A stretch of 64,000 nucleotides of DNA from an uncultured Eubacterium sp. (GTDB lineage Bacteria > Bacillota > Clostridia > Oscillospirales > CAG-272): NCBI GenBank assembly GCA_900544285.1, contig UQUT01000001.1, positions 59,004 to 123,003 of the forward strand. Reading direction: 5' to 3'. Of this stretch, positions 23,731 to 44,376 are shown piece by piece. The first letter of the stretch is position 1; each line of letters starts with the position of its first letter. Made by a program: the position numbers and the translations under genes. The notes under the pieces were generated by a model. It saw only the letters and a program-made list of their open reading frames with translations, was not told where the DNA came from and ran no database searches.

Positions 23731-23813
23731 CCCTTTTTGGAACGGTTAAATCTCAAGGTGCCTATAAGAGAAATCATCACCGCCGCATAAAGCGGAAGAA
23801 GGAGGATTCTTTT

Positions 23814-24933: not shown

Positions 24934-24953
24934 GTCCGGTTTTGTAAACATTC

Positions 24954-25532: not shown

Positions 25533-25535
25533 CCC

Positions 25536-26411: not shown

Positions 26412-26504
26412 TTTCGTTGTCCTCCTTGATTTTATTACTTTCATAGGATACAATATATTTGACCATATTGAAATAGCCAAAACAGGAGAATAATATATAG
26501 CCAG

Positions 26505-27587
26505 ATGAACTACACAATTGACATCAACCTGCAAATGCCTGCATATCTTCAGTTATACAATCAAATCAAAGCGGATATTGTAAAGGGGATTTATCCCTAT
26601 GGCAGCAAAGTCCCTTCTAAGCGTACAATGGCAGTGGAAACAGGGATAAGCACCATAACCGTAGAACACGCCTACGCTCTGCTTTGCGAAGAAGGATATA
26701 TTGAATCCCGGGAACGAAGTGGTTTCTTTGTCGTTTTTCGGTTAGTCGATGGTTTTGCTTCCACGCCTCAAAAGCCAGTGCCTCCAAAGATTTTACCCCA
26801 TTCCCATCACGCCAACCTTGAATTTCCGTTTTCCATTTTGACAAAGGCCATGCGCCGTGTGATGAGCGATTACGGCGAAAATATCTTAATCAAATCGCCA
26901 AACTCCGGCTGCGTGGAGCTTCGGGAAACGCTCAGGCAGTATTTAGCACGCAATCGTGGCATTTATATTGACACCGAGCAGATTATCATCGGCTCCGGGG
27001 CAGAATATTTATATACCCTGATTGTCGGGATTTTGGGGCAGGAACAAATCTTTGCACTGGAATCGCCGTCTTATGAAAAAATAGAACAGGTGTATCAGGC
27101 GGCAGGGATAACCTGCGACCTGCTGCCGCTTGGTTCGGATGGGATCGAAAGTTCCGCACTGGCTCAGACAAAAGCGACTGTTCTGCACCTGTCCCCTTAC
27201 CGGAGTTTTCCAACCGGGATTACGGCATCGGCGTCCAAGAGATATGAATACATCCGGTGGGCGGAACAACCCGGGCATTTTCTTGTTGAGGATGACTTTG
27301 AATCCGAGTTTACGATTTCAACCAAGCCGGAAGAAACGCTGTTTTCACTCTCTGAAAATGATAACGTGATCTATCTCAATACATTTTCCCAAACAATTTC
27401 GCCGTCCTTACGCATGGGGTATATGGTACTTCCGAAGCGGCTTGTAAACATCTTTTCTGAAAAACTCGGATTTTACTCCTGCACCGTGCCAACCTTCGAG
27501 CAGCTTGTATTGGCAAAACTGATTTCGGAGGGGGACTTTGAAAGGCATATCAACCGGATTCGGAGAGCGAAACGAAAGAATATATGA
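26505..27587 (+). pseudogene. pdxR: MocR/GntR-family PLP-dependent regulator (PdxR-like). It looks truncated: 360 aa against the usual 450-480.
   Basis: The N-terminal GntR HTH (KVPSKRTMAVETGISTITVEHAY) is followed by an aminotransferase-fold domain. The protein ends at ...ERHINRIRRAKRKNI, lacking the ~100-aa C-terminal lobe. It is divergent from pdxST, as expected for PdxR. Confidence 0.6.
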
Positions 27588-27782
27588 TTGCGTCATCGTG
27601 GAAAAAGATTTTTTGAATGGGAATCATCAAGTTTTGTATTCAAGCTAAATTTCAATGGCAGCAGCGAGAATTCCGTCAATTAAAAGACCGCCTTCCCATA
27701 TGAGAGTGGCGGTCTTGCATTTTACTTGTGCGGCACTTTTTCGTATACACTTACTTACCACATACGAAAATTCGTATTGGTT

Positions 27783-29354
27783 TCAGTGACATCTTTTACA
27801 CGGCGTATATCCCATACTTTGAGCTTCTTCGAGTGTCACCTGACGGGGATTTTTCATATTACTACAGCTTGAATAGCTATGATATTTTGAGCCAGAAGAA
27901 GGTATCCATACCATTTCCGTTACTTCATCGTCCGGCTCGGGTTCTGTATAGAGGGGCGGATCTTCTTCCGGCACGACGGTACTGGAAGGTGGGTTGACTG
28001 TTTCTGGCTCACTTGGAGTGGTTGGCACGGTTTCTGAGCTTTCAGGCTCATCAGACTTATCCTCTCCATATATGCCCAACTCACCGATATTTAAGGTTTC
28101 AACGCTCACCTTGTCATTATAACAATTTATCTTGAATGAAGCGTCTGTATCGTTTGTAATATTCAAATCCACCGAACCGTTAACAGAATCCGAGTCTGCA
28201 CTACAGAAATTAAGTGTATATTTCCCTGATTTAATTCTGTACTCAAATTCACCATCTTCTCCGTGCTTCAATGTTTCTGTATGACCGTCAATTTCCATTT
28301 TAACATCATAAGTGCTGAATATTAGATTTGGGACAAAATCAATTTCAATTTTGAGAGTATATTTTTCATATGGTTTATGTGTAACAATCTTCACCTCAGC
28401 GTTAGGAGGAAAAGTTGCATTTTTATCAAAAGTTTCTGTTCCGTTAATGGAAATAAGGTTTTCAAAGGTGGATTCTGTTATATCTGGATCAAGGTCAAAC
28501 GCTTCATCTGTCATTATTTCCATAAATCCCGCTTCATCAAATGCCTCGATAATCAATTCTGTATCCATACTCTTGGCCTCATCAGAAGAAAACGGAACGC
28601 CAATATTCTTAAATGAATGATATGTAATGACTATTTTCGATGAATTCTTAAACTCAACATTTCCTTCAAAGTCAGATACACCATTAATCGAAACAGATTC
28701 AACAATACCATCCCTATCCGCTTCTGAGATTTCTAAATCTTCAATTACTCCCAAAGAAATATTAGTAAAGCCAGACCGCCGAAAATCGTCCTTTACTATT
28801 TCGTATTCTTTTCCTATGCACTCTTTCGCACTATACGGAGTATCAACATTAAAAAAGTTCTCATAGGTTGGAATGTTTGTAGGAGACTTATTAAGCCAAG
28901 AATAACTCGAGATATACGGCACTACAAGCACTATGGATACGGCAAGAATCAAATATTTTAGCCAAGCTTCATTATACTTAATTTTTCCTTTATGTAAAAG
29001 CAAAGCTACAACCAACCCGCATAGTTGCAGTACAGAAAAAATGATTGGAGGAACCTTTCCATTACCTAATGCAATTAATAAAAGAAACGCAGATACGGAT
29101 ATCGCAATGGTCTCAATTTTGCAGAATAGATCTATTTTGTTCCAATAATCTGTAAATTTCCCCTTCGCTTTATTAGCAATAGATGGCTTTCGAGCCAAAG
29201 GGGTAGATGTAATCTGAGGCGCACTTTCTTTTTTATCCGGTTCTCCCTTATATTTTGCAGATGAAACGAACGTTTCCGTTTCAACTTTCATCCCGCAAAA
29301 TGGGCAAAAGTTAGAATCCTTTTTAAGTTCAGCACCGCATTTAGAGCATTTCAT
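27783..29354 (-). CDS. membrane protein: N-terminal zinc ribbon, 3 TM, large extracytoplasmic region, C-terminal Ada-type Cys4 module
   Basis: The N-terminus reads CSKCGAELKKDSNFCPFCG and TM helices follow. The C-terminus reads KYHSYSSCSNMKNPRQVTLEEAQSMGYTPCKRCH, which shares the pattern of the Ada_Zn_binding domain (yCRPSC...aGfRPCKRC). Confidence 0.5.
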   Translation of the reverse strand: MKCSKCGAELKKDSNFCPFCGMKVETETFVSSAKYKGEPDKKESAPQITSTPLARKPSIANKAKGKFTDYWNKIDLFCKIETIAISVSAFLLLIALGNGKVPPIIFSVLQLCGLVVALLLHKGKIKYNEAWLKYLILAVSIVLVVPYISSYSWLNKSPTNIPTYENFFNVDTPYSAKECIGKEYEIVKDDFRRSGFTNISLGVIEDLEISEADRDGIVESVSINGVSDFEGNVEFKNSSKIVITYHSFKNIGVPFSSDEAKSMDTELIIEAFDEAGFMEIMTDEAFDLDPDITESTFENLISINGTETFDKNATFPPNAEVKIVTHKPYEKYTLKIEIDFVPNLIFSTYDVKMEIDGHTETLKHGEDGEFEYRIKSGKYTLNFCSADSDSVNGSVDLNITNDTDASFKINCYNDKVSVETLNIGELGIYGEDKSDEPESSETVPTTPSEPETVNPPSSTVVPEEDPPLYTEPEPDDEVTEMVWIPSSGSKYHSYSSCSNMKNPRQVTLEEAQSMGYTPCKRCH

Positions 29355-29615
29355 TTGCTATCCCTCCTTTTACACTCTCAGTTTTGTTCTGTTGGCGCAA
29401 CAGGCGGTATAAGTATTTAACCATTATAAACATCCTTTCTCTTTGTATTATTATGTTCTTCAAAATCTGAAGGCACACCACAATTCGCATAGAATCTGGC
29501 ACCGCCTTGAATTTGATCTCCACAGTTTGAACCGAATGCTACTATAGCTCACCATCTCTCCTTTATATTTCTGAATTCGCCAAGATTGTTTCATCGTTCT
29601 TGACTTATTTTTTGC

Positions 29616-30656
29616 TTATGGGTGGCAGTTACCGCAGGGATCATAGCCTCGAGCAATTACATCGTCTCGGCTTCCTGTAAAATATTCCTTATTGCTCTCT
29701 TTCATTCGGCCTACCGATGAGCAGGAAGGATAGTGGAATTTCTTTGTGTTTTTATTAAGAATATACGTGGTTTCCTGCTTGTTTTCTTCCGGTTGCTGAT
29801 TTACAGTCGGTTGTTCTTCATTTGGCACTTCTTTCGATCCGCCTATATAAGAACTTTCGCCTGTCGCATAGTCTATTGAGATCTGCGGCTGCGCATTGTA
29901 AACAAAGACATTGAAACAAATACCGTCGCCATCATCTTCAACAGAATACGCTTCCATTTGAACCCCGTTGGCGACAAGGTTTTTCCCGTCGTAGATAGGA
30001 GTAACCCGATAGAGGACGTGGTAATTTGTTTCCTTTACGAAGTCGGCAACCATATTCTCGAATGGCAGCATACCATCAACATTCATATACCGAGTACCTG
30101 TTATCAGATTCTTCGTATTCGCATTCTCTCCACTTAGCTGAAAACCGATTAAATGGCAGCGGTTATATAGGTACTTTCCGTCAACGCAATCATATTTAAC
30201 CGTGTGCCATCCGGTAGGCTTGACCTGCCCGATACTCCCACGATCTTCGGTTGGCATTAAATCTTGACCAATGCAGGCCATCGCAATTCCACATCTGCCG
30301 AGGTTGTCAAGGTCGCTATAATATTCATACGATTGCGTCGTATAATCATCATCGCTGAAATACGGCACATTATCGTTGACTGCCACATAGGGCGATCCTG
30401 CGAAAGCAGGAATACTCGACAACGAGACTGCTTTATTTTCGGTTGGTATAGAGGGCTTTTCAGTAGGCGTTGAATCTGTGCTGACTTCCGGTTCTGAGTC
30501 CGGTATTGATTGTTCGCTCTCGGTTGGTTTCGTCAGCTCAATACTCGACGATGAATCCGATATATCAGAACTTATTTCATCAGGGATTTCACCGCACCCG
30601 GAAAAGATAATGCTCACCGCCAGAAGAAGCGATAAAAGCCACGTCATTTTCTTCAT
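29616..30656 (-). CDS. lipoprotein DNA/RNA non-specific endonuclease (EndA/NucA-like) with a C-terminal Ada-type Cys4 module
   Basis: The lipobox reads MKKMTWLLSLLLAVSIIFSGC. NRCHLIGFQLSGENANTKNLITGT is a DRGH-type beta-beta-alpha-Me nuclease motif. The C-terminus KFHYPSCSSVGRMKESNKEYFTGSRDDVIARGYDPCGNCHP matches the tail of the 27783 product. Confidence 0.7.
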   Translation of the reverse strand: MKKMTWLLSLLLAVSIIFSGCGEIPDEISSDISDSSSSIELTKPTESEQSIPDSEPEVSTDSTPTEKPSIPTENKAVSLSSIPAFAGSPYVAVNDNVPYFSDDDYTTQSYEYYSDLDNLGRCGIAMACIGQDLMPTEDRGSIGQVKPTGWHTVKYDCVDGKYLYNRCHLIGFQLSGENANTKNLITGTRYMNVDGMLPFENMVADFVKETNYHVLYRVTPIYDGKNLVANGVQMEAYSVEDDGDGICFNVFVYNAQPQISIDYATGESSYIGGSKEVPNEEQPTVNQQPEENKQETTYILNKNTKKFHYPSCSSVGRMKESNKEYFTGSRDDVIARGYDPCGNCHP

Positions 30657-31060
30657 TTTTCAAAAATCTCCTTTGTTATTTTTTCGTGCGATTTTCCCGT
30701 GAACTCGAATAAAGATACCGATTTGAAGCCGTTTTGTGTCGGCTCAAAATCGAGCTGATAATCGCTCGGATATTTTCGATTCCACCAATAGACAATAATC
30801 CTATCAATTTCATTCAAATGCTCTTTTACCGAGAAGTTCTCAATAAAATAATCTGCTTCATCTTTTCCCTCAACGGGGAAATGGTCGAAAAGGGTGTAGC
30901 GGATACCCGCCGACGAAATGAGTTTTTCAGAAAATTTATTTATAAACAGATTGCCGTTAAGAGAAGCCCCTATATCTTCAAGAATTTTCTCGTCACGGCT
31001 GAGCCGCCTATGATTGAACAGCATACCCTTGTTGTCATCTAAAAGAAAAATAACGGTCAT
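30653..31060 (-). CDS. small cytoplasmic hypothetical protein, translationally coupled to the nuclease (candidate nuclease inhibitor or immunity protein)
   Basis: 135 aa from ATG 31060, preceded by GGGAGGTG. Its stop overlaps the nuclease start (ATGA). No signal peptide is present. Confidence 0.4.
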   Translation of the reverse strand: MTVIFLLDDNKGMLFNHRRLSRDEKILEDIGASLNGNLFINKFSEKLISSAGIRYTLFDHFPVEGKDEADYFIENFSVKEHLNEIDRIIVYWWNRKYPSDYQLDFEPTQNGFKSVSLFEFTGKSHEKITKEIFEK

Positions 31061-31300
31061 TGAAACACCTCCCACGAATAGTGATAATTACGCTATACAG
31101 CATAAAAATAAGCAGACCGTCAAAACACAAATCGAATCGACGGTCTGCTTCATATTCAAAACGAAACAAGTGAAAATAGTGTAAGTAGAAATATGATTTT
31201 ACGGCTCATTTTCTCCTCCATATTTACTCAATGTCTCATTTCGCATATGGTTCTTGTATGCAGCGTCGTTCAGGTAATGTCTTGACTGAAACTGTTCCTT

Positions 31301-32701
31301 TTATTCAGGCTGAGGAACAGGAGGAATCGGAGGTGCGGGTGGAACCGTACCGAACAACGCTTGCAGTTCGGGAACTGTTTCCGCCACCATCCAATTTGCC
31401 ATTCCTTGCTTCCAGACAAGACTCTGCTTTGTAAATGTTCCAGCAACAACCATCTGCGACAAGGTTCCAATATCATACGGGCCAGTTGTCTGCCCGTTTA
31501 TTGCAATATGGAAAGAGACTGTTGGAATTGGAGGAGGAACCATACCTGCCTGCGGTGGCATTGCACCGCTTTGTGGTTGGTTCATTCCATTCATCATATT
31601 GTTCATTGTGCCTGCAATATTTTGGCCAACGGCACCGCCTACTGCCATTCCTGCCATCATAGCAGCAGGATTAAAGCCTGCACCGCCCCCACCTAAATCA
31701 ACTCCGCCTGCACCGTTAGCGCCCATCTGCCCCAAAGCGTTAGCACCTGCAACACCAACATCTGTTTGAGCTTCAACTTGGTAAGCAGCAAAATTAGCTG
31801 TTTGAGTCGCTTTGTGTTGAGCATAAGCCCCTTCTTCACGCTGAATACGAAGTGATTCCTCATAGTTGAGAGCTTCAATTCTTTGCTTATCTTCAATATT
31901 TTTAATTTGAGCGGCAGCTTGCGCTCTCGTTGTAGCGGCACTAACCTCTTGGGTTACGCTCATAAGCTGACGATAACCGTCACTTGATTTATCCAAGTCA
32001 ATAGCCGAAATATCAACGCCGGACACGTCCACCCCAAAATCTTGGCGTAATCTCTGCGAAAGAGCTTTTTCAACTATATCGTTGATTTCTGCGGTCTTGC
32101 GTTCAATCTGAATTACGGGAATATTATACTCGGCAGGGGCATTTGCAACTGTATTTTTCACATTTCTTATAACAGCGTCTTTAATCTGATTTTGAAAATT
32201 TGTCAATGTAAATTCTGCAAGCCTATGCAGTTTGATAAACTCCTGATAATCAGATATTTTGAAGCTGATTGTACCACGAACAGCCGTTGGTACTCCAAAA
32301 TCCAAGAAACGAGGATCATATACATCAAAAAATGGAACACCAAACTTCACCTGAATAATGTGCGCAAGATTGATGAAATATACCTCTGCTTGGAACGGGG
32401 TTCCGCCTTCAAAAGCTAACCCAACTAAGCTCGCAAGAACAGGCAGGTTCGCCGTCTTTATCGTTTGGTCAAACGGGCCGACGATGAAATCCTGCATTGT
32501 TCCATTTTCTTGTTTATAGACAAAGACCGCAACTTCACCGTCTTTGACTCTTAACGATGAACCCCAACGAATAGCATTTTCTCGATTATTGTTTCCTTTT
32601 TCTGAACCTACCGGATGCCACTTCCAAATCAAATATGACGGCTCATCACAGCGAATTTCATCCATAAATCCGCCTGCTTTGGGTTTATTAAACAATGCCA
32701 T
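31301..32701 (-). CDS. SPFH/band-7 domain protein with a G/M/N/Q-rich low-complexity linker and a C-terminal DUF4339 (GYF-like) domain
   Basis: The N-terminus reads MALFNKPKAGGFMDEIRCDEPSYLIWKWHP, a COG4260-type SPFH. The C-terminus reads FHIAINGQTTGPYDIGTLSQMVVAGTFTKQSLVWKQGMANWM. I chose the internal start at 32701. Confidence 0.6.
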   Translation of the reverse strand: MALFNKPKAGGFMDEIRCDEPSYLIWKWHPVGSEKGNNNRENAIRWGSSLRVKDGEVAVFVYKQENGTMQDFIVGPFDQTIKTANLPVLASLVGLAFEGGTPFQAEVYFINLAHIIQVKFGVPFFDVYDPRFLDFGVPTAVRGTISFKISDYQEFIKLHRLAEFTLTNFQNQIKDAVIRNVKNTVANAPAEYNIPVIQIERKTAEINDIVEKALSQRLRQDFGVDVSGVDISAIDLDKSSDGYRQLMSVTQEVSAATTRAQAAAQIKNIEDKQRIEALNYEESLRIQREEGAYAQHKATQTANFAAYQVEAQTDVGVAGANALGQMGANGAGGVDLGGGGAGFNPAAMMAGMAVGGAVGQNIAGTMNNMMNGMNQPQSGAMPPQAGMVPPPIPTVSFHIAINGQTTGPYDIGTLSQMVVAGTFTKQSLVWKQGMANWMVAETVPELQALFGTVPPAPPIPPVPQPE

Positions 32702-32754
32702 AAAAATACCTCCTAAAATTTTTTGATTTCTGCTCTCTAACACAAGCCGTACCA

Positions 32755-33618
32755 TCATTTGATTTTTATTTTCAGTTCCTTCATTTTGTCAAAATACATC
32801 TTTTGGATTCCGGCAAAAGCAGGATCATTAGGGAATACTATTTCTGCCTTTTTATACACCTGTTCCATTTTTGCTACCCACGCATTACTGATTGTTCTGC
32901 CAATAGTCGCACCCGTTTCGGCTTGACCATTACTATTGATTCGGTTTGTAAATGTGTTTTTAGACAAACTCACATCAATATTGGCAATAGCAAGCATCAT
33001 AAATTCTAAACAGTCATCAATAGAGTTAGGAATAGGAAAATTTCTTATCAATGAAAGTTTTTGAACATCTGCCTTATCTGCTGCAAGATAAACGCTTAAT
33101 GCACCGCCTAATCCCTTTTTTCGAGATCCTTCAATCGCCATTAGCTGATCCTTAAATGCCTGAACGGATGATACCGCCGCCCTTCCAGTTATTCTTACGC
33201 CACAATCTGGGCAAATAGCTGTTGTCTCGCTGATAACACTTCCGCAATTCGGGCACTTGAAAATCTTTCCGACAAATTCCTGCTGCCTTTGGGAAGGGTT
33301 CGGCTGAGGCGGGGTAGGTGGTGTTTCTTGTGCGGCCGGGGTAGACGTTGTGCCAACCGGCGCACCACATCCGTGGCAGAATTTTGCGCCCGCATTAAGT
33401 TTTGTGCCGCAGTTAGAGCAGAACATATATGTACCCTCTTTCTTTGTAGTATCGGATTGATATGAAATGTTCTCATCTTCATTCCCATCATCGGAATCAT
33501 TATCCGAAATACTTTCGATTTTTGCTTGAACTTTTCCAATGGTGGATTGAATATCAAACGGTAATGCACCTGAAAGCCCTTTCAAAAGTCCTTTTTTCTC
33601 TTTGCTCATAATTTTCAC
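32755..33618 (-). CDS. double zinc-ribbon protein
   Basis: CSNCGTKLNAGAKFCHGCG and CPNCGSVISETTAICPDCG are followed by a ~150-aa domain I cannot assign. Confidence 0.5.
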   Translation of the reverse strand: MKIMSKEKKGLLKGLSGALPFDIQSTIGKVQAKIESISDNDSDDGNEDENISYQSDTTKKEGTYMFCSNCGTKLNAGAKFCHGCGAPVGTTSTPAAQETPPTPPQPNPSQRQQEFVGKIFKCPNCGSVISETTAICPDCGVRITGRAAVSSVQAFKDQLMAIEGSRKKGLGGALSVYLAADKADVQKLSLIRNFPIPNSIDDCLEFMMLAIANIDVSLSKNTFTNRINSNGQAETGATIGRTISNAWVAKMEQVYKKAEIVFPNDPAFAGIQKMYFDKMKELKIKIK

Positions 33619-33670
33619 CTCAAAAATTTGTTATCCTCTATCGCTTTGCTTGTCTGAAAAGGAACGGTTT

Positions 33671-33967
33671 TTATTCAGCCTTACCAGTATTGATTTCTCC
33701 AACAAGGTAAGCGTTTAATTCATCTGCCGAAATCTCATAGAATTTCAAAAGAGGCTTTGTTTCTGGATTTTTTGAAAATACTAAGAAACAAGCAAGAAAG
33801 GTACTCCACGACATCTTTCGTTTTCTGTTTTCTACGGCAACTAATGTCTGCCTACTAACACCGATAATCTCTGCTAACTTTGCTTGTGAAAGTGAAGCTT
33901 TCGCTCGCAAGGTAGCTAAATTCTGTGTCATATTATCAATCAAGTTCTCTTTTACAGCTTCATTCAT
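33671..33967 (-). CDS. XRE-family HTH regulator
   Basis: LSQAKLAEIIGVSRQTLVAVENRKRK is the HTH. It is divergent from the integrase. Confidence 0.7.
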   Translation of the reverse strand: MNEAVKENLIDNMTQNLATLRAKASLSQAKLAEIIGVSRQTLVAVENRKRKMSWSTFLACFLVFSKNPETKPLLKFYEISADELNAYLVGEINTGKAE

Positions 33968-33994
33968 AGACCAACCCTCCTACGTAAAATAGGA

Positions 33995-34014
33995 TTTTCG
34001 TGAAGTATGCTACT
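33995..34014. repeat. left copy of a perfect 20-bp inverted repeat flanking the integrase gene
   Basis: ttttcgtgaagtatgctact. Its exact reverse complement lies at 35427-35446. Confidence 0.8.
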
Positions 34015-34225
34015 TGACGGGAGAATACTCCGACACAAATAGACACTATAATTATACTTATTGTTGTCGGATTTGTCAATATGACGCACGAAAATTCCGG
34101 TTTTTTTCGGATTTTCTTTATCAGACGGTCGAAAAAGCAGGTCTTTTCTCCCCTAAAAGCTCTCAAACACGGGTTTATCGCCGTCAGAATTTCCGTCAGC
34201 ATTACATAGAAAGGAGGCATTTCTT

Positions 34226-35356
34226 ATGTCAAAAAAAGGTGAAAACATTTATAAGCGAAAGGACGGAAGATGGGAAGGTCGGTATATCAAGCTCTATGAC
34301 GCTGACGGAAAAGCAAAATACGGTTATCTCTATGGGAAAACCTACGGTGAAACCAAAACCAAGCTGCAAGAAAAACAAGCGCAGATCTGCCGGGGGCAGC
34401 TTCCCCAAGTATCAAAAATCGCTTTGTATTCGGATATACTTACGGCTTGGCTTCAATCCACCCGTATCAATGTAAAGGAATCTACCTACGTTCGGTATAA
34501 GCAGCTTATCGACCGCCACATTATCCCGCCTTTGGGGAAATACGTTGTCGGCAAAATCAGTACGCAGTTGATTGAAAAGTTTGTAGAGGAAAAGATAAAA
34601 AGCGGTCGTTTGGACGGGAAAGGCGGCCTGTCGCCTAAGACGGTAACGGATATTATCACGATTGTAAAAAGTTCAATGGAATATGCTTCTTATAATGGGT
34701 TCCCGGTGGCCTGCAATCTGAGTAAGCTGTCTGTAAAAAAGAAAGAAAAAGAGATGAGGGTTTTGTCGGCACAAGAACAGAAGCAGCTAACCTCAACCCT
34801 CCTTGAAGAAACGGATCTTTGTAAATTGGGGGTGCTTCTCAGCCTATATACCGGGATACGGATTGGGGAACTCTGCGCTTTACGATGGGAGAATCTGAAC
34901 CCCAACGACAAAACCCTTCGGGTGCGGGAAACAATGCAGCGTATTCAAAGCTCTGAGCCGAGCGAACGGTCTAAGACTAAAATCGTGATAACCGAGCCGA
35001 AAAGCAAATGCTCGATTCGGGATATTCCACTGCCCGATTTTCTGCTTCAAATCATACGCCAGTTTCAAGGAACGCCGAAGGCTTTTATCTTAACCGGGGA
35101 AAGAAACAGGTATATCGAACCCCGTACAATGCAAAACCGCTTTCAGCGCTATGTCCGGGAAAGTGGAATAAAAGAAGCAAATTATCACGCCCTCCGTCAC
35201 ACCTTCGCCACAAGGTGCGTGGAGGTCGGATTTGAAATAAAGAGTCTGAGCGAAATTCTCGGTCACGCCAATGTCAATATTACACTCAATCGCTATGTTC
35301 ACTCTTCCTTTGATCTCAAAACGCAGAATATGAATAAGCTCGCTATCGTTGCTTAA
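34226..35356 (+). CDS. int: tyrosine site-specific integrase (Tn916/phage Int family)
   Basis: The N-terminal arm-binding domain reads NIYKRKDGRWEGRYIKLYDADGKAKYGY. The C-terminal catalytic box reads HALRHTFATRCVEVGFEIKSLSEILGHANVNITLNRYVH. Confidence 0.9.
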   Translation: MSKKGENIYKRKDGRWEGRYIKLYDADGKAKYGYLYGKTYGETKTKLQEKQAQICRGQLPQVSKIALYSDILTAWLQSTRINVKESTYVRYKQLIDRHIIPPLGKYVVGKISTQLIEKFVEEKIKSGRLDGKGGLSPKTVTDIITIVKSSMEYASYNGFPVACNLSKLSVKKKEKEMRVLSAQEQKQLTSTLLEETDLCKLGVLLSLYTGIRIGELCALRWENLNPNDKTLRVRETMQRIQSSEPSERSKTKIVITEPKSKCSIRDIPLPDFLLQIIRQFQGTPKAFILTGERNRYIEPRTMQNRFQRYVRESGIKEANYHALRHTFATRCVEVGFEIKSLSEILGHANVNITLNRYVHSSFDLKTQNMNKLAIVA

Positions 35357-35426
35357 CGCCGTCAAAATTGTAGTCAGTAATCCCCGAGAATGCCTGTATT
35401 GCAGGGATTTCCGGGGATTTTACTTT

Positions 35427-35446
35427 GAGTAGCATACTTCACGAAA
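35427..35446. repeat. right copy of the perfect 20-bp inverted repeat
   Basis: agtagcatacttcacgaaaa. It follows a stem-loop, aatccccg...cggggatt, placed just after the int stop. Confidence 0.8.
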
Positions 35447-35536
35447 ACAACAAGTGCTTTTTCTCCCTTTAATTTGGGTTGATTTTTTCAATATGTAAGC
35501 AAGACGCCGCCTTAACAGGCAGCGTCTTTTTTGTGT

Positions 35537-37273
35537 TTAATAGGCAGGCACACCGTAGCCGAGTATCTCGTAATAGCCGATGGAATACTCCCGGAGTCTC
35601 ACGCTGTCGCCTGAGTTTCCCTCAACGGTATAAACCTTTCCGTTTTCGACCTTTTGGACGATACCTGTATGGTCAGATTCCCCGTCCTGCGGGCCGGATT
35701 CACCATCGGGCGAGTCCCAATCAAAAAAGATAATCATACCGGGGGCAGGTTCATTGGAACCGTCAAGCCATTGGCCTCGATCCTTAAACCACTGCACACC
35801 GTTGACACAGCCTGCGTATTTGGGTATTACCCCTGCGTCGATATAGCCGCACTCATTGGCAACCCAACTGACGAAGCAGGCACACCATTCCACTCTGGAA
35901 TTGAAACCATACCAACTCCAATAGGGTTCGCCGCCCAAGTTTCCAACCTGAGAGAGCGCAACTGTAACAATCTGCCCCTCGTCATAGGAAATCCCATAGA
36001 GAACCGCAGACCATAGGGAATTGTTCTCGTCGGCAAGCAGCTCGGCAAGATAGCCTTTCTGTTCTTCATTAAATCCATACTGAGCCGCCATTTCATCGGC
36101 GGTTTTGTGCGAAACCGTAATATATAGGTAGGTCTGCGTGACCGTACTTTCGGTTTCAACAATATTGCCGTGGCCATCATCGGTTTCGGTAATCATCGTT
36201 TCGGTATTGGTTTCTGTCCGGGAGGATATTTCGTTCATTTCCCAAAAGATGTCCTTCATAAGTTGTTTTTTTGAATCGTCCATCGTGGCGACTTCCTGTG
36301 GGTTGTCGGGATCAGTATTGGTTTTTACGGCATACACCGCAAGCACCTCTTTCCAAACAGCCCTGCTGCCACTCATTTCAAGAACATCGTAGGATACTGA
36401 ATCTTTTTTCTCCTGAAGCTTAGCATCGTAATCGGAATTGATCTCCTGCACTACGGTCTGCATTGTCATACCTGTGCCGGAATCTTCTCCCGAAAAGAAG
36501 ATCCCAAATACAGAACCGAGAAGCAGACCAATCAGACAAATCACAATAATCACAACAACCGCAACCCACCCTCCGGCAGCAATAGCGGCGACCAATGCTT
36601 TTGTGGCGGCAATAATCGCCTTGACTGCCGCAATCGTCGCTTTTACGGCGGCTTTCACCCCAACGGCAACAGCCTTTGCGGTTGCTCTCGCCGCCTGAAT
36701 CGCTCTCTGCGTTGCTTTCACCGTGGCCTGCGCCGTTTTCTGTGCCGCCTTTGCAGCCTGCTGTGTAGTTTTAACGGCTGTTTTAGCGGTGCGCTCTGCG
36801 GTTTTGACTGTTTTCTGCGCTGTTTTAGCCGAACCCCTGCCAACGGTTTTAATCGTCTTTTTCCCCGCAGATCGGGCAGACTGCTTCACCGTCTTTTTCG
36901 TTTCCTGAACTGCTTTCACTCCTTTGTTTCGGGGAGTGCGGATAGATTGCTTTTCAAGGGATTGCGCCGCCCGTTTCTCCTTAAATTTCTGAATCCCATC
37001 TTTTGCTTTTGAGATATTCTGTTTGGTGGTTTCCAGACCTTTGCGCCCCTGCTTATCAAACTGGCGGGCAGCTTCGTGGGTAATGCGGTCAGCACCGCCC
37101 TCAATCCGGTTGGAAGCGTATTCTTCCGCACTACTCTCCTGAGCGTGGGTAGAATGTTCCGCTTTTTCTTTGGTTTGAATAAAGGCGGATTTCATTCTTT
37201 CTGCGGCAACCGCCGATTTGTTTATCGTCTTGATCGTGCCTTTGACCATATCCCTCGTCTTTATATCAGGCAT
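35537..37273 (-). CDS. conjugative cell-wall hydrolase: K/A/T-rich repeat region, TM, C-terminal CHAP (NlpC/P60-like) amidase domain (Tn916 Orf14-like)
   Basis: The C-terminus reads WCACFVSWVANECG...H.. and fits a CHAP Cys-His domain. Residues ~150-250 form KTxxK/AAxKA repeats. I chose ATG 37273, preceded by GGAAAGGAGG. Confidence 0.65.
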   Translation of the reverse strand: MPDIKTRDMVKGTIKTINKSAVAAERMKSAFIQTKEKAEHSTHAQESSAEEYASNRIEGGADRITHEAARQFDKQGRKGLETTKQNISKAKDGIQKFKEKRAAQSLEKQSIRTPRNKGVKAVQETKKTVKQSARSAGKKTIKTVGRGSAKTAQKTVKTAERTAKTAVKTTQQAAKAAQKTAQATVKATQRAIQAARATAKAVAVGVKAAVKATIAAVKAIIAATKALVAAIAAGGWVAVVVIIVICLIGLLLGSVFGIFFSGEDSGTGMTMQTVVQEINSDYDAKLQEKKDSVSYDVLEMSGSRAVWKEVLAVYAVKTNTDPDNPQEVATMDDSKKQLMKDIFWEMNEISSRTETNTETMITETDDGHGNIVETESTVTQTYLYITVSHKTADEMAAQYGFNEEQKGYLAELLADENNSLWSAVLYGISYDEGQIVTVALSQVGNLGGEPYWSWYGFNSRVEWCACFVSWVANECGYIDAGVIPKYAGCVNGVQWFKDRGQWLDGSNEPAPGMIIFFDWDSPDGESGPQDGESDHTGIVQKVENGKVYTVEGNSGDSVRLREYSIGYYEILGYGVPAY

Positions 37274-37389
37274 AAAAACCTCCTTTCCGAGCGCCCTGTT
37301 ACGCTCTAAAATGAAAAAGAGGGGTAAAGGTACAAACACCTTACCCCTCAAAGTGCGGGCGCTGAAAAGCCGCTTGTTTCAAGGGCTTT

Positions 37390-37752
37390 TTACCCTCTAT
37401 TTTTCGACTCTGTACGCTTCTTTCTTGCGTACTCGGCCTGCTGCCGCTTATACGCTTTCTCCGCACACTTTTCGCAATATTTTTTCTTGTTGTTTCGCTT
37501 GATAATGGGAGTACCGCAGGCAACGCACCTGTCAGGGTGTGTTCCGAGTATCTCTGCTTCAAGCAACGGCTCAGCCGGAAGCACGGCATTTCGGAAATAC
37601 TTACATAATAAGGAATAGGAAATACTCTGCACACAAACGCAGGGTTCTCCGTCATCGAGAAGCAAGCAGTTTCCTCCGTCATAATTAGCGCAAAGCCTTT
37701 TAATCAAGGCGTTGGATCTCTGCCGCTGCTTGGGCGTCATCTGCGGAAGCAT
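37390..37752 (-). CDS. cysteine-rich VLP-domain protein (conserved small ICE protein)
   Basis: LIKRLCANYDGGNCLLLDDGEPCVCVQSISYSLLCKYFRNAVLP, and a second Cys cluster CVACG...CEKC. Confidence 0.5.
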   Translation of the reverse strand: MLPQMTPKQRQRSNALIKRLCANYDGGNCLLLDDGEPCVCVQSISYSLLCKYFRNAVLPAEPLLEAEILGTHPDRCVACGTPIIKRNNKKKYCEKCAEKAYKRQQAEYARKKRTESKNRG

Positions 37753-38533
37753 TCAGCGAACCTTCCTCCATAATCTTTTTAGCGACAACAACAAGCCTGC
37801 CGTTGGTATGGGAATACTCACAGGTGGAAAGGGTAATCAGCTTATCACCGTATTCTGCCGACACTCCGGTATCATACAGCGAAAGCTCTTTGCATTTCTC
37901 AATAAACGCCGTAAATTCCTCCGGCGACTGAGCGTTGGTAAAGCGGTAGAATTTGAAGGAATCAGGGCTGTCGGTATAAACCACGGTTTTGAAAACCGCA
38001 ACAATCTCATATTCGCACTTCTCGGTCAGGGTATTAAATGTGACCGTCTTGTGATTTTTCCAGAAATCCTCGCTTTTGAATTTCTCGAGATTGGCAAACA
38101 TACTGCCGTTTTTCATATTGTGGCCGTAGATTACGATATTGTCCGAAGGTGCCTGCACATCGCAGTCCTCCTGCACATAGGGGCAGCCATAGTCGGTATA
38201 TCCTTTATCAAATCCGTGTTTGAGATAGAAATTCGGGTTGTCTACCGTCTGCATAACAGGGTAGTTGATATTCGTATCTTCCACACGAACCCAACCGACC
38301 AAATCGCTGTTCTGGCGATAAAGCTCCGTCAGTTCCGGCAAAATGGCTGCGTCCTCAGAATACTGGATTGGTTCGGTCGGTTCTGTTTCAGGTTTCTCCA
38401 CAATCTGAGCAAGGGAACCGTACATCTGCGCCTGTTCCTTTTCCTCCTGAAAGTGGTCGATTATAAAATAGGTGCTTGTGCCGAGCAGGGCAACAAACGC
38501 CGCAATTAAAATGATACAAATGGTCTTTTTCAT
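37700..38533 (-). CDS. srtB: class B sortase
   Basis: IVIYGHNM is the catalytic His region, LITLSTCEYS is the TLxTC Cys motif, and NGRLVVVAKK carries the Arg. The N-terminus has a TM anchor. Confidence 0.75.
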   Translation of the reverse strand: MKKTICIILIAAFVALLGTSTYFIIDHFQEEKEQAQMYGSLAQIVEKPETEPTEPIQYSEDAAILPELTELYRQNSDLVGWVRVEDTNINYPVMQTVDNPNFYLKHGFDKGYTDYGCPYVQEDCDVQAPSDNIVIYGHNMKNGSMFANLEKFKSEDFWKNHKTVTFNTLTEKCEYEIVAVFKTVVYTDSPDSFKFYRFTNAQSPEEFTAFIEKCKELSLYDTGVSAEYGDKLITLSTCEYSHTNGRLVVVAKKIMEEGSLNASADDAQAAAEIQRLD

Positions 38534-39291
38534 CGTGTATTCCTTTCTTCGTTTATTCTTCTGACGGCAATCTCATAGTAATGGCTGTCGATTTCACAGC
38601 CGATAAAGCGCCGTTTGTTCCGAATGGCCGCAATCGCTGTCGTTCCCGTCCCCAAGTACGGATCGAGAAGAAAATCCCCCTGTTTGGAGGAAAGCTGAAC
38701 CAGCCATTCGACGCACTCCACATTTTTAATCGTGGGGTGGTAAATTCCGTTTTTCTTCTGCCATACCGAATTATAGGTGGATTTGGGATAAGCGGAACCG
38801 AACCAACAGCTATCGAGCCGAAACCGATAACCCTCTTTTGGCTTTTTTATCCGTTTAACAAGCTGCGTCTTTTCAAACTTCCTTCGCCCTTTGTGGCAGA
38901 AGATTACCCATTCCGAATTGTTGGCATAGCTGCCGCTTAAATCCCCAATTCCTCCGAGCGTCCCTTTTTCAATCACAAGGCAGTTTTTAATGATGAACCC
39001 TGCGTTTATCAGGGAATGATAATGAAGGGGGTATCTGTCGAATCGGGTAAAGAAATATGCGTGGGCATTGTCTTTCAGCACACGGTAGCATTCGTCTGCC
39101 AACCAATCGTAGTCAATTCCTTCGTCCCCTTTCAGGGGATTATGCCTATTCCTTGTAAAATGGTTGACATACTGAATCCCATAAGGCGGATCGGTGATAA
39201 TCAAGTCGATGGAATTGCCGGGGAGCTGCCCGAACAACTCCCCGCAATCCATACAGTAGACCTTGTTTTCCTCAACTCGCATTTTCTTCAC
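38530..39291 (-). CDS. orphan DNA methyltransferase (beta-class N6A/N4C, DPPY)
   Basis: Motif IV reads IITDPPYG, and motif I FLLDPYLGTGTT follows it, which is the beta-class permutation. No restriction endonuclease gene is adjacent. Confidence 0.8.
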   Translation of the reverse strand: MKKMRVEENKVYCMDCGELFGQLPGNSIDLIITDPPYGIQYVNHFTRNRHNPLKGDEGIDYDWLADECYRVLKDNAHAYFFTRFDRYPLHYHSLINAGFIIKNCLVIEKGTLGGIGDLSGSYANNSEWVIFCHKGRRKFEKTQLVKRIKKPKEGYRFRLDSCWFGSAYPKSTYNSVWQKKNGIYHPTIKNVECVEWLVQLSSKQGDFLLDPYLGTGTTAIAAIRNKRRFIGCEIDSHYYEIAVRRINEERNTR

Positions 39292-41611
39292 CGAATTTGG
39301 TAGTCATCAGCTTGTAAAGCTTGGTGTTTTTGGGGAACTTGTTTGCAAACGGAACAATGCTTGAACCTACCTTGATTAAGCCGTGTCCGGCCTCCACATT
39401 GGTAATATACGACATTTGCATATCGGAGATATTCAGAAGCCTGCCAAGCTCAATTCTGTCGGTACTTGCTTGATTTGCCATAATCAAAAATTCGCTGTTG
39501 CTGAGCATTGTCCTTGCCGTGTGACTCTGCAAGAGGTCGTCCACATTTTGAGTGATACCCGTCGCATAAGCGCCGTATTTCCTCACTCGTTTCCACAAGG
39601 TGAATAGGAAGTTTGCGGAATACTCGTGCTGAAACAGAAGGTAGATCTCATCAATAAAGATGAAGGTATTTTTGCCCTTTGCACGGTTCTGCGTAATACG
39701 ATTGAGAATGGAATCCAGAACCACGAGCATTCCGATGGGCATTAACTGCTTGCCGAGGTCGAGAATATCATAGCATATCAGACGGCTTCCGGTATTCACA
39801 TTCGTATGCTTCGCAAAGGTGTTCAGGCTGCCGTTGGTAAACAGCTCAATGGCAAGGGCGATCTCCTGCGCTTCGGGTTCCTCCTGTTTCAAGAGTTCAT
39901 TTCTGAAATCCTGCAAGGTCGGCACTTCGCCCTGATAATCATTCTGCTGATAGGTGCGGTAAACCGAAGCGGTACAACGGTCGATAATGGATTTCTGCTT
40001 TGCACCGAGGTTCGTCCCGCCGATAAGCTGTTCGCAAAGAGACATAATAAACTCGGATTTGAGAATAACCGGGTTCGCCCCATCGCCGTATTCCTTTGTC
40101 ATATCCATAGCGTTGATATGGTTTTGAGAAGTGGCGGAGATGTGGATTACTTCACCGCCGAGCGCCTTGACAAGCGGAGAATATTCCCGCTCAGGATCAA
40201 TTATAACCACATCTGAATCGGAGGATAGAATGACATTCTCAATCTCGCCTTTTGCGGCGAAGGATTTACCACTGCCTGACACGCCGAGGATAAAGGAATT
40301 GCCGTTGAGAAGCTGTTTGCGGTCGGCAATAATCATATTTTTGCTGATGACATTCTGCCCGTAGTAGATTCCGTTCTCGTGAAAAATATCCTGTACCCGG
40401 AATGGGATAAAGACCGCCAAAGATTCGGTGGTCAGGGTGCGGAAGGTATCAATCTTTCTCACGCCAAACGGCATAGCCGTGTTCAGACCGTCCATCTGCT
40501 GAAATTTCAGGATACCAAACTGACACAGGTGCTTTCTCGCCGTGGTGAGCAGGGCTTCGGTGTCGTTGTCGAGCTGTTCCTTGGTATCCGCCGTATGCAC
40601 AAGAGTCAGAACGGCAAACATCATTCTCTGATCCCTTGTGGTCAAATCGTCGAGAAACTCCTTCATTTCCTTTTTCTGCTGTTCCATATCATAAGGCACG
40701 GTTGCCGAAAAGTTGTTGTTGGAATTTTGTCTCCTTTGCCAATTCGTTATATTCGTTTCAACCCCAAGCAGGCGGTTTTCTGCTTCTTTCACCGCTTCAT
40801 CGGTGGGAACAGGCACAACGTCAATCGACATCATCAGGTTACGGTTCAGATCGGTCAGCTCGGCTACCATACTATCCTTAATATAGGAGGCGTATTCCCG
40901 TAAAAAAAGAACCCTCCCAAAACGGTTTCCCATCTTGAAAAAGTCCTTCTCAAATTCCATTGTATCGGGGCAGATATAGTCTTTGAAGCTGTGCCCCTTT
41001 TTTCGAGTTTCCTTCATGTCGAACCGATAGGCCGTTTCCTCGCCCACACGGTAGAAATCGTGAAAGATACGCAGTCTTTCATCGGTTTCCAGTTCCACGC
41101 ATTTACTGCCGAGCCTGCCGAAGTGGGCAATCAGATCCGCACCGACACGGGCAAAGTAGTTTCGTGCGTCCTCCACATTCTTTTTATTGACCGAAATGGT
41201 CATATACTTATCCTGCACGATGGCATTGGCACCCGTGGCCTTTTCAAGCAGAATTTTGTTGTATTCCTCCCGGTACTCGTCGAGCCTGTCGCCTTTTAGG
41301 GGAATGAGAATGTTTTTCTCAAAATCAAGGCGGTTGAGCCTGCGGTTGTTGATGGTGATTTTGGTCGTTGCGCCGGAGTCAAGGGAATTGAGCAGTTCCG
41401 AGTATTCAAGGAACATCGCTTCTTTATCTTCACGGCTTGCAACGGCGTAATTTATATCTGAAAACTTAAAGGTCTTGGAAAACTTGTCCTTTCCGATCTG
41501 GAAGATACCGTCATCATAAATCACGGTGACGGGGATTACATCCTGAACGCCCTTCGGCACGACAAACTTTTCCTTCTCCTGCTTGCGAAGATTGGTAAGT
41601 GTTTTAATCAT
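39272..41611 (-). CDS. VirB4-family conjugative transfer ATPase (Tn916 Orf16 / PrgJ-like)
   Basis: 779 aa. Walker A reads GVSGSGKSF, and the C-terminal ATPase core reads IFIDEIYLLFQ. Confidence 0.85.
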   Translation of the reverse strand: MIKTLTNLRKQEKEKFVVPKGVQDVIPVTVIYDDGIFQIGKDKFSKTFKFSDINYAVASREDKEAMFLEYSELLNSLDSGATTKITINNRRLNRLDFEKNILIPLKGDRLDEYREEYNKILLEKATGANAIVQDKYMTISVNKKNVEDARNYFARVGADLIAHFGRLGSKCVELETDERLRIFHDFYRVGEETAYRFDMKETRKKGHSFKDYICPDTMEFEKDFFKMGNRFGRVLFLREYASYIKDSMVAELTDLNRNLMMSIDVVPVPTDEAVKEAENRLLGVETNITNWQRRQNSNNNFSATVPYDMEQQKKEMKEFLDDLTTRDQRMMFAVLTLVHTADTKEQLDNDTEALLTTARKHLCQFGILKFQQMDGLNTAMPFGVRKIDTFRTLTTESLAVFIPFRVQDIFHENGIYYGQNVISKNMIIADRKQLLNGNSFILGVSGSGKSFAAKGEIENVILSSDSDVVIIDPEREYSPLVKALGGEVIHISATSQNHINAMDMTKEYGDGANPVILKSEFIMSLCEQLIGGTNLGAKQKSIIDRCTASVYRTYQQNDYQGEVPTLQDFRNELLKQEEPEAQEIALAIELFTNGSLNTFAKHTNVNTGSRLICYDILDLGKQLMPIGMLVVLDSILNRITQNRAKGKNTFIFIDEIYLLFQHEYSANFLFTLWKRVRKYGAYATGITQNVDDLLQSHTARTMLSNSEFLIMANQASTDRIELGRLLNISDMQMSYITNVEAGHGLIKVGSSIVPFANKFPKNTKLYKLMTTKFGEENAS

Positions 41612-41979
41612 TTCGACTTCATAGCCTCCTTTATTTTTGCGTCAATACCCGGCTTCATCAGCTCATAGTAGGTATTGGTGGAATGGAAGGTGAGTTTTTT
41701 CGGGGTGAGAAACTCCGATTTAATCCACGCATAGATGAATTTTTCTGCGGTCATTCCGTTGTATTTGACAAATCCAAGCGCCGCAAAGGGCGCTGCGCCC
41801 AAAATGCAGATCCACGAAACGGTTTCGGTGCCGACATAGGGCTTGAGCAGAAAATACAGCCCAACCGCTACAACGCAGGCGCAGGCAGAAAAGATAAACT
41901 GCCTGAGCGATAAACCGAAAAACATCGATTCCGTATAGTTTCTGATTTCTCTGTTGATTTTTACTTCCAATTCAGCCAC
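41608..41979 (-). CDS. PrgI-family (VirB3-like) conjugal transfer membrane protein
   Basis: A 123-aa protein with 2 TM. Its start overlaps the VirB4 gene. Confidence 0.55.
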   Translation of the reverse strand: MAELEVKINREIRNYTESMFFGLSLRQFIFSACACVVAVGLYFLLKPYVGTETVSWICILGAAPFAALGFVKYNGMTAEKFIYAWIKSEFLTPKKLTFHSTNTYYELMKPGIDAKIKEAMKSK

Positions 41980-41985
41980 CTCCGA

Positions 41986-42486
41986 TTATCGTTCAAAGCT
42001 TTGAGAACCTATGTTCTTCTGCTTGAAGGCAGCAAGAATATCGGTACCGTCGTAACCGTTTTCAATCATCTTTTCCATCGTCACACCGTTCTGCCTGCAA
42101 AACTGCATATACTTTTTCAGCCCATCGGGGTAATCGGTTTCCATATCCTCTGCCGACAAACAATCCCAAACGCAGTAATGGGCGTCGGGCAGCATACCGA
42201 CAAGGCGATACCCATCTTCCAGATGGTTAAACAGGCTGTTGTCGTTAAACAGCAAGGTAGAATCGTATTGCTTCACCGACTGATCGGGGTTCTCTGCAAA
42301 CGGGTTAAAAGAAATCGCTTCATCTGCGTTTACCGCATAAGCGAGAGCGTCCTTTTCATTCCCGTCCTTCACAAGCAGATAAAAAAGCTCATAGCTGCCG
42401 CCAAGTTCCCGGTTTTCCTGATAAACTGTCAGGCGTTTCAGGATACGCTCGGTGTATCTCATCATTTTTGCATTGTTGAAATTCAT
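41986..42486 (-). CDS. hypothetical conjugative-element protein
   Basis: 166 aa from the internal start MNFNNAKMM, which overlaps the upstream stop (ATGA-type). Confidence 0.4.
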   Translation of the reverse strand: MNFNNAKMMRYTERILKRLTVYQENRELGGSYELFYLLVKDGNEKDALAYAVNADEAISFNPFAENPDQSVKQYDSTLLFNDNSLFNHLEDGYRLVGMLPDAHYCVWDCLSAEDMETDYPDGLKKYMQFCRQNGVTMEKMIENGYDGTDILAAFKQKNIGSQSFER

Positions 42487-42653
42487 ACTGTACCTCTTTC
42501 TTTTTCTTTTGCCTGCCGGATTTCTTCGGCGCATACACATTCGTCGGCAAGGCACTTGACCTTGCCTTTTCGTCTGCCGCCGTAGTACAGGCAATATCTG
42601 CAATCGCAATCTTCAAGGGTGTAGCCCTTGAATTTGTTGTAAATCCGTTTCAT
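42483..42653 (-). CDS. small Cys-rich protein (56 aa; below the ORF-track cutoff)
   Basis: MKRIYNKFKGYTLEDCDCRYCLYYGGRRKGKVKCLADECVCAEEIRQAKEKERGTV has 8 Cys. It is translationally coupled to the downstream ORF. Confidence 0.35.
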   Translation of the reverse strand: MKRIYNKFKGYTLEDCDCRYCLYYGGRRKGKVKCLADECVCAEEIRQAKEKERGTV

Positions 42654-42664
42654 TTGCTTCTCCT

Positions 42665-43501: not shown

Positions 43502-43505
43502 AAAA

Positions 43506-43931: not shown

Positions 43932-44015
43932 TGCTGCCTCCTTAAAAACAAAAAAAAGAGGGGTGTTCCTGAAAATGAATCCAGGAACACCCCTCGTGCA
44001 AGTGTCGTTTATGAA

Positions 44016-44375: not shown

Positions 44376-44376
44376 T

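Follow-up and report, generated by a model that had tools for sequence, protein, structure and literature searches.

A recombinase gene between inverted repeats

The stretch of DNA analysed here, 64,000 nt from an uncultured Eubacterium sp. (the window, to which all positions without a contig label refer), contains a 1453-nt segment, 33995-35447, that holds a tyrosine recombinase gene, int, between two inverted repeats. The sequence TTTTCGTGAAGTATGCTACT lies on the plus strand at 33995-34014 and its exact reverse complement at 35428-35447; the two are complementary at 20 of 20 positions, have 1413 nt between them, and extend no further in either direction. A sequence-only reading of this DNA had pointed to perfect 20-bp inverted repeats around int, and these are confirmed, although the right copy had been placed one nucleotide off, at 35427-35446. 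No other copy of the 20-mer was found in the window at up to three mismatches, and none of 100 dinucleotide shuffles of the window gave two or more matches to it. Both repeats are intergenic: the left one lies 27 nt upstream of the start of an XRE-family gene, the right one 71 nt past the int stop codon and about 90 nt from the stop codon of a CHAP-domain gene. This separates the segment from shufflons and gene-altering invertons (Rci, hsdS), in which the repeats are in coding sequence. The parts of the segment are as follows.

33995-34023, plus strand: left recombination site, with outer arm TTTTCGTGAAGT (33995-34006), central ATGCT (34007-34011) and inner arm ACTTGACGGGAG (34012-34023); the perfect repeat covers 33995-34014
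34029-34071, no strand assigned: operator-like dyad TCCGACA ... TGTCGGA that covers the P_out -10 box and spacer, kept in the clade of 60-96% identity (alignment); putative function
34051-34079, minus strand: predicted outward promoter P_out, with -35 box TTGACA (34079-34074), 17-nt spacer and -10 box TATAAT (34056-34051), reading leftward through the left site
34087-34094, plus strand: CACGAAAA, a further copy of the outer arm's distal end, lying 8 nt upstream of the P_out -35 box; semi-conserved as C-G/A-N-GAAAA in the close clade
34180-34198, plus strand: direct repeat, GCCGTCA (34180-34186) and TCCGTCA (34192-34198), 12 nt apart and 28 nt before the int start codon
34226-35356, plus strand: int, encoding a 376-aa tyrosine recombinase with N-terminal beta-sheet, SAM-like core-binding and catalytic domains
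35379-35428, plus strand: terminator-like hairpin (35379-35418) and, after it, AUUUUACUUU, on the inner side of the right site; fold energy -23 to -26 kcal/mol, z-score -3.9
35418-35447, minus strand: right recombination site, in minus-strand order outer arm TTTTCGTGAAGT, ATGCT and inner arm ACTCAAAGTAAA; the perfect repeat covers 35428-35447

By this arrangement of arm, spacer and arm, the repeats are predicted to be core-type crossover sites, distinct from arm-type or operator sites. The sequence-only reading had also considered the 20-mers as arm-type or operator sites of the integrase; this was rejected on their core-site anatomy, and the candidate arm-type sites are the separate GCCGTCA direct repeat. 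It had further placed a third core at about 34082-34099, where an extra copy of CACGAAAA is indeed present, but at 34087-34094, near the P_out -35 box; a search of the window for further core-like sites gave none that was convincing. An inverted repeat of 80% identity between 34190-34209 and 34292-34311, in which the second CCGTCA repeat pairs with TGACGCTGACGGAAA in the int coding region (codons for YDADGK), may be due to chance.

Int matches the Pfam families Phage_integrase (PF00589, E 3e-27) and Phage_int_SAM_3, and carries the catalytic residues of the tyrosine recombinase superfamily (R...K...H-x-x-R...H/W...Y) as R212, K259, H321, R324, H347 and Y357, which are invariant in 16 and in 27 homologues. 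The nearest sequence in the PDB is Tn1549 Int (6EMZ/6EN0, E 2e-15, catalytic domain only). An AlphaFold (AF2) model of Int has a three-stranded sheet and a helix at the N-terminus, a helical core-binding domain and a catalytic domain (predicted local distance difference test score, pLDDT, 73.6), and the top ranks in a Foldseek search with this model were full-length lambda Int (1Z1B, E 5e-10, 393 aligned columns) and Tn1549 Int. Since the catalytic residues are invariant and the three-domain fold is like that of lambda Int and Tn1549 Int, Int looks functional, and it is the presumed catalyst of inversion. NCBIfam contained no model naming Int, which the sources label 'site-specific integrase'. 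The protein is no serine invertase of the Hin/Gin type, given that Pfam shows tyrosine-recombinase domains only and the fold is that of lambda and Tn1549 Int. Nor does the locus resemble that of a mobile-element integrase with directly oriented attachment (att) sites: the sites are inverted and lie 1.4 kb apart around the gene, and a search of the cassette for a xis-like open reading frame (ORF) found none.

The first 20 residues of Int are invariant among homologues down to 46% identity. This invariant N-terminus and the lambda/Tn1549-like fold, together with the conserved GCCGTCA repeat, suggest that Int may be a heterobivalent enzyme whose arm-type sites lie inside the very segment that is inverted. 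The family form of the direct repeat is GCCGTCA, N5, (G/T)CCGTCA. The motif CCGTCA occurs upstream of int in 69 of 71 cassettes, usually twice and about 11-12 nt apart, and is invariant in the close clade; it is a candidate pair of arm-type sites for the Int N-terminal domain, an int operator, or both.

Both orientations of the segment in public contigs

Contigs were found by looking up the exact Int protein in metagenome assemblies, and their arrangement was compared with the window by blastn. Two of them, L001 and L003, are 99.95-100% identical to window positions 24086-34014 and 35428-45217, yet carry 33995-35447 inverted. The three alignment pieces in these contigs overlap by exactly the 20-nt repeat, indicating that the inversion breakpoints lie inside the repeats. 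Contig L002 has the orientation of the window. The flipped state is also present in two short contigs of one assembly, with the XRE flank joined to the 3' end of int in L084 and the CHAP flank joined to the promoter side in L085, and again in L100. Flipped and window orientations occupy exactly the same position, without target duplication or scar.

The segment therefore has two of the properties expected of an inverton: it is bounded by inverted repeats, here a perfect 20-nt pair that is kept at about 70 of 80 homologous loci, and it exists in both orientations between otherwise identical flanks (the window and L002 vs L001 and L003). A self-inverting int cassette was one of the possibilities raised by the sequence-only reading, which had proposed a search for the inverted orientation; that orientation was found in the assembled metagenome contigs L001, L003, L084, L085 and L100, and the polymorphism recurs across the Int family, as described below. 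An assembly artefact was considered and rejected as unlikely: with 20 nt, the repeat is below the k-mer size given in the record k127_111490, and several independent assemblies agree. A scan of metagenomes with the 20-mer returned four short contigs only, and a megablast search with 33600-35600 against plasmids gave no match. We hold it to be likely that 33995-35447 is an invertible switch with its own recombinase, in which Int performs the site-specific inversion.

Some contigs give indirect signs that the two states coexist in one sample. L086, which encodes an Int of 49% identity beside a CHAP gene of 81% identity and matches the repeat at 18 of 20 bases, has at its ends a perfect inverted repeat of 101 nt, so that the same outside flank stands on both ends of the cassette. 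Three others consist of the cassette only and end inside the repeats, namely the 1460-nt L010, the 1441-nt Logan unitig L098, and L073, a 1458-nt contig of the isolate Extibacter muris DSM 28560. Among the 120 best homologue clusters, about 16 have a longest contig of 1.3-1.55 kb. Such flank patterns and cassette-sized contigs are what an assembly graph yields when a segment joins its flanks both ways, and a repeat present in multiple contexts would look similar.

This last point bears on the idea that the cassette is an insertion sequence (IS)-like mobile element, in which the repeats would be terminal inverted repeats, Int a transposase, and the two orientations independent insertions. Cassettes do occur in many unrelated contexts, some metagenome-assembled genomes contain two, and cassette-sized contigs could come from multi-copy repeats. 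However, both orientations are found at an identical position with flanks that are 100% identical and bear no target duplication or scar, and the window holds a single copy with no duplication at its ends. Conserved outer arms extend outside the crossover region, so that each locus owns a complete dyad site; inverted tyrosine-recombinase sites cannot excise a circle; cassettes of one genome differ in spacer and sequence; and no empty site was seen. An IS-like element is thus a very improbable explanation.

Three further observations concern individual contigs. In L086 the divergent Int lies at the same position of a related conjugative element, and the interior may have been swapped with the sites kept, recombinase-mediated cassette exchange being a possible route. 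In L100 (SAYO22-1 scaffold_6; L100 positions 1752-2882, corresponding to window 34226-34240), int of the flipped cassette has lost 1 nt from an A7 run at codons 3-5 (ATGTCAAAAAAAGG); the gene is thereby broken into ORFs of 82 and 310 aa, and the deletion could represent either a switch locked by slippage or a sequencing error. L087 contains, at its positions 1320-1352, a lone near-perfect dyad site, TTTCGTGGAGT AGCAT ACTTCACGAAAA, with the same 20-mer; it follows an ORF for a 317-aa membrane protein, there is no int in the remaining 560 nt, and it may be a remnant or the end of a broken assembly.

A family of cassettes and the genes that they face

A homologue search with Int gave at least 8000 candidates, and a genome scan gave 80 loci at 42-96% identity, from which the family statistics were drawn. 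All 80 are in Clostridia (Lachnospiraceae, Oscillospiraceae, Acutalibacteraceae, Ruminococcus and others). Flanking inverted repeats scoring at least 14 are present at 71 of the 80; where measured, they match exactly over 14-35 nt, and in most loci int is preceded by one repeat at a distance of about 200-260 nt and followed by the other at about 70-90 nt (up to about 210). The sequence-only reading had suggested looking for the repeat pair around int in related genomes; a pair of this kind is present at about 70 of 80 homologous loci, and about as many of the Int homologues share the whole layout of core sites, outward promoter, GCCGTCA repeat before int and terminator after it. The family consensus for the sites is TTTTCGCAGAGT, about 5 variable nt, and ACTCTGCGAAAA, with a dyad core TTTCG(C/T)AGAGT / ACTCT. 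Within a locus the two sites agree at about 100% of positions from the outer arm through the spacer to the first 3-4 nt of the inner arm, and the spacer is private, differing from locus to locus while being the same at both ends of one locus. This is, as far as sequence anatomy can tell, a tyrosine-recombinase core site with a homology-dependent crossover region, and private spacers would stop the cassettes of one genome from recombining with each other.

Orientation varies among orthologous loci of different species, in several independent groups of the family. Both flanks are swapped in L036 compared to L027 and L042, and in L022 compared to L033; one matched flank is on the opposite side in L036 vs L024, in L022 vs L021, and in L020 and L055 vs L026 and L067. 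A tblastn search with the window's neighbours against the 80 loci indicated that the context is not conserved beyond the closest clade, which argues against a role specific to integrative and conjugative elements (ICEs). Homologous cassettes are found in plain chromosomal contexts, for example in Agathobacter rectalis, and the third possibility offered by the sequence-only reading, a junction of two tandem elements, was rejected as unsupported on this ground.

The family also bears on which enzyme performs the inversion. Master invertases that act in trans exist, for example RecV and Mpi (PMC5903667). A host enzyme of this type, or RecA acting on the 20-bp homology, might invert the segment, with Int as an integrase remnant caught between the sites, and a second integrase is in fact encoded in the window at 8613-9719. 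Against this, the repeats co-occur with this Int family at about 70 of 80 loci in many genera, and the arms co-vary by Int clade; the sites show the core dyad and spacer anatomy of a tyrosine recombinase; the catalytic residues are strictly conserved; and lengths of 14-25 nt are short for RecA-mediated exchange. Inversion by another enzyme is accordingly a remote prospect, and Int is preferred as the recombinase.

What would the inversion switch? The genes and the terminator outside the segment are given below.

31301-33967, minus strand: operon facing P_out, with genes for an XRE-family helix-turn-helix (HTH) protein (33671-33967), a double zinc-ribbon protein (32755-33618) and an SPFH/Band-7 and GYF protein (31301-32758); assignments by Pfam
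35501-35535, plus strand: hairpin and U6 tract that lie beyond the right site, ahead of the CHAP gene's 3' end, and do not belong to the cassette; -16 to -18 kcal/mol, z-score -3.05
35537-37351, minus strand: CHAP-domain gene, the last gene of a minus-strand conjugation array and the neighbour on the other side of the cassette

P_out matches the sigma-70 consensus at 12 of 12 positions and is on the strand opposite to int. In 75 cassettes of the family, the best promoter match on the outward strand was at least 11/12 in 25 and at least 10/12 in 45; on the inward strand the corresponding numbers were 0 and 1, and at least 11/12 was reached by 10 of 1500 shuffles. The family consensus shows the -10 box as well, some 10 nt inward of the left site. 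The segment would thus hold a promoter able to drive a flank in one orientation, facing XRE in the window, conserved in the family and strand-specific. Because the XRE start codon is just 27 nt beyond the left repeat, with no other good promoter between, P_out appears to be the only plausible promoter for the XRE operon in the state seen in the window. The operon may run on into an ORF of 140 aa and an Endonuclease_NS_2 gene (29616-31075).

At the other end of the cassette, none of 200 shuffles was as stable as the hairpin at 35379-35418, and an A/T-rich tract inside the right site is present in the family consensus. This structure would end int transcripts and, in the flipped state, insulate the XRE operon. 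The hairpin at 35501-35535 would halt the transcripts of int (window state) or P_out (flipped state) before antisense entry into the conjugation genes; on the minus strand the same sequence forms a perfect 12-bp stem of -27.8 kcal/mol.

The neighbours of the cassettes are not arranged at random. At the 43 loci with both neighbours within 400 nt, both genes point at the cassette in 1, where about 11 would be expected (binomial P about 6e-5). Neighbours reading away from the cassette have a TetR_N domain in 23 of 75 cases, and include XRE-type regulators, cell-surface proteins (Flg_new, MucBP, DUF7601, SLH, dockerin) and polysaccharide-synthesis genes; those reading toward it are largely housekeeping genes, with TetR in 0 of 35. 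Beyond the regulators lie SipW-like signal peptidases (12 of 81), camelysin/TasA-like proteins, FctA pilins, PP2C/kinase modules and polysaccharide genes. The genes that the outward promoters would read are classical phase-variation targets.

We propose the following mechanism. Int would bind the two inverted core sites, each an imperfect dyad of arms of about 12 nt around a short central spacer, and strand exchange by Int within the identical spacer would flip the 1.4-kb segment. In the window state (ON), transcription from P_out would cross the left site and enter the conjugative element's accessory operon (XRE / zinc-ribbon / SPFH), while int would be transcribed the opposite way, up to the terminators. 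In the flipped state (OFF, or read-through only), P_out would face the terminator at the 3' end of the conjugation genes, and the XRE operon would sit behind int and its terminator. Int probably contacts the GCCGTCA direct repeat through its invariant N-terminal domain, and the repeat may serve in synapsis, in autoregulation of int, or in both. The main output of the switch is probably ON/OFF control of the XRE / zinc-ribbon / SPFH operon by P_out. The sequence-only reading had inversion change the orientation of int relative to read-through from the ICE; self-inversion stands, but the outward promoter in the cassette, the probable main output, had been missed.

Control of int or of the conjugation genes could nevertheless be the main function of the switch. 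A flipped int is co-directional with the conjugation operon and might be transcribed by read-through, while P_out would then be antisense and convergent into the CHAP end, and the XRE operon would not be the primary target. In L001 and L003 the CHAP gene has int after it in the same direction, the minus-strand hairpin after the CHAP gene is without a U-run, so that read-through is conceivable, and there is no clear int promoter. Yet most family members reside outside conjugative elements and still keep the outward promoter; the plus-strand hairpin with U6 between the right site and CHAP would stop P_out transcripts; and the potential P_out targets are non-random, being TetR/XRE regulators and surface operons. 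Such control may apply to this ICE copy, but it accounts neither for the outward promoter found throughout the family nor for the choice of neighbours, and as the main function of the switch we judge it unlikely.

Several observations weigh against the switch as proposed, with Int as recombinase and P_out as output. The contig look-up groups similar places, so that 15-20 of them are not listed singly, and it gives no A:B orientation ratio for the element; assembly signatures hint indirectly at reversible switching within one clone. In Agathobacter rectalis, 10 of 10 long contigs have one orientation despite perfect 25-nt repeats, and some family members may be strongly biased or locked in orientation. 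P_out is recognised by its consensus match, from which we presume that it fires, and a promoter search of the window gave no convincing promoter for int. The Int model is of only moderate confidence (pLDDT 73.6), and its N-terminal domain matches AP2 weakly (Pfam, E 0.07). For the switched operon, PADLOC gave nothing beyond weak HTH/control-protein matches for the XRE protein, and NCBIfam gave no match above cut-off.

The conjugative element, related switches and significance

The conjugation array to the right of the cassette encodes a relaxase, the coupling protein T4CP, VirB4, TrbL, PrgI, a sortase, a methylase and a 2834-aa polyvalent protein. The ORF for the last (55496-64000, minus strand) starts at the window edge and has LPD11, MutS_I, Eco57I-type methylase and SNF2 helicase domains, by which it is recognisable as a putative 'large polyvalent protein' of a conjugative element. 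The second integrase gene (8613-9719, minus strand) is found some 25 kb left of int, and its product, of the classical type, contains an Arm-DNA-bind_4 domain and is 25% identical to Int; it may encode the true integrase of the conjugative element or of a neighbouring one. A gene for a MazF/PemK-like toxin (10079-10633, minus strand) is near it. The element is variable in structure. L002 is 99.96-99.99% identical to window 13273-18425 and 29376-45357 and is without the 10.9 kb between (18426-29375), which in the window contains an MFS transporter, an Na/Pi cotransporter, a cation efflux gene, PdxS/PdxT, a GntR-aminotransferase and a 523-aa zinc-ribbon protein. The two thus differ by an indel polymorphism beside the accessory genes. 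In L085, a contig of low coverage, window position 35848 in the 3' part of CHAP is joined to 52983, so that the conjugation module 35849-52982 is gone and the cassette is kept. In L084 (1229-2032), the 5' part of XRE and the cassette are joined at window position 33843 to 8036-8670, just downstream of the second integrase gene, representing either a rearranged element or a chimeric contig of 3x coverage.

The standard example of a recombinase gene inside an invertible segment is Hin (PMC5903667), a serine recombinase that needs a Fis-bound enhancer (PMC3798978). The Salmonella H segment and the cassette are alike in being a segment of about 1 kb with a recombinase gene, an outward promoter (predicted, in the cassette) and short inverted sites, and would be alike in ON/OFF control of an adjacent operon. 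They differ in the enzyme, Hin being a serine recombinase with a Fis enhancer and Int a tyrosine recombinase of lambda/Tn1549-like fold without any sequence relationship to it, and in the promoter, which in the cassette is divergent from the recombinase gene. Tyrosine recombinases also invert a promoter segment between short inverted repeats in E. coli fimS, by FimB/FimE, and likewise in ipuS and hyxS (PMC6083910). A promoter-bearing segment is flipped by a tyrosine recombinase in fimS and, as proposed here, in the cassette, but the fim recombinase genes are outside a segment of about 300 bp, whereas here the gene is held within 1.45 kb. FimB and FimE are not known to have an N-terminal domain of the arm-binding type; Int has three domains and its cassette a conserved internal direct repeat.

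Within Clostridia, the RecV-dependent switches flgB, cwpV, cmrRST and pdcB of C. difficile represent phase variation in which a tyrosine recombinase acts on short inverted repeats (PMC5903667, PMC5386303). There, many switches of about 150-300 bp depend on a single RecV acting in trans, in contrast to the cassettes, each of which has its own recombinase and a private spacer. The heterobivalent integrases lambda Int and Int of Tn916 and Tn1549 share with the modelled Int the N-terminal three-stranded sheet and helix, the SAM-like core-binding domain and the catalytic domain, and arm-type sites have a candidate counterpart here in the direct repeat; unlike Int, they integrate and excise between direct att sites with Xis, whereas the cassette has inverted sites, no xis gene, and an inversion product. 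In the yeast 2-micron FLP/FRT system, the gene for a tyrosine recombinase is flanked by inverted copies of the enzyme's target, and the enzyme inverts the segment that encodes it, but this is a eukaryotic plasmid with 599-bp repeats, in which inversion serves copy-number amplification and not promoter switching, and the relatedness is at the level of the superfamily only. The logic of the cassette is thus like that of the Salmonella H segment with a different enzyme, a lambda/Tn1549-type tyrosine integrase inside the segment, and the family is apparently undescribed: a full-text search of the literature, with subscription journals outside its coverage, found no account of it.

According to inverton surveys, Clostridia have few such segments, the median being 3 per genome (PMC11892184), and one pipeline at least drops invertible regions that contain coding sequence (PMC8748976, methods). 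We give even chances to the view that the cassettes make up a very large family, as yet undescribed, of autonomous modules for phase variation in gut Clostridia, in which a heterobivalent recombinase, arm-type sites, an outward promoter, a terminator and two core sites are combined with a private spacer that isolates each module, and which standard inverton surveys, with their focus on short segments between genes and their exclusion of invertible regions with coding sequence, would have missed; here the module would make an accessory operon of a conjugative element phase-variable.

For mobile-element biology, this would mean a phase-variable cargo operon on a conjugative element, and for the mechanism of recombination, an apparently heterobivalent enzyme of the lambda Int type used as an invertase, with arm-type sites inside the inverted segment. 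A compact module whose spacers set orthogonality would also lend itself well to use in synthetic memory switches. Most mapping of phase variation in the gut has concerned Bacteroidales, and a family of switches in Clostridia that carry their own recombinase, and would escape pipelines that drop invertible regions with coding sequence, would alter this picture. Since the cassettes front TetR/XRE regulators, SipW/TasA-like fibre operons, pilins and polysaccharide loci, such switches could drive much of the heterogeneity that Lachnospiraceae and Oscillospiraceae show in their surface and their regulation.

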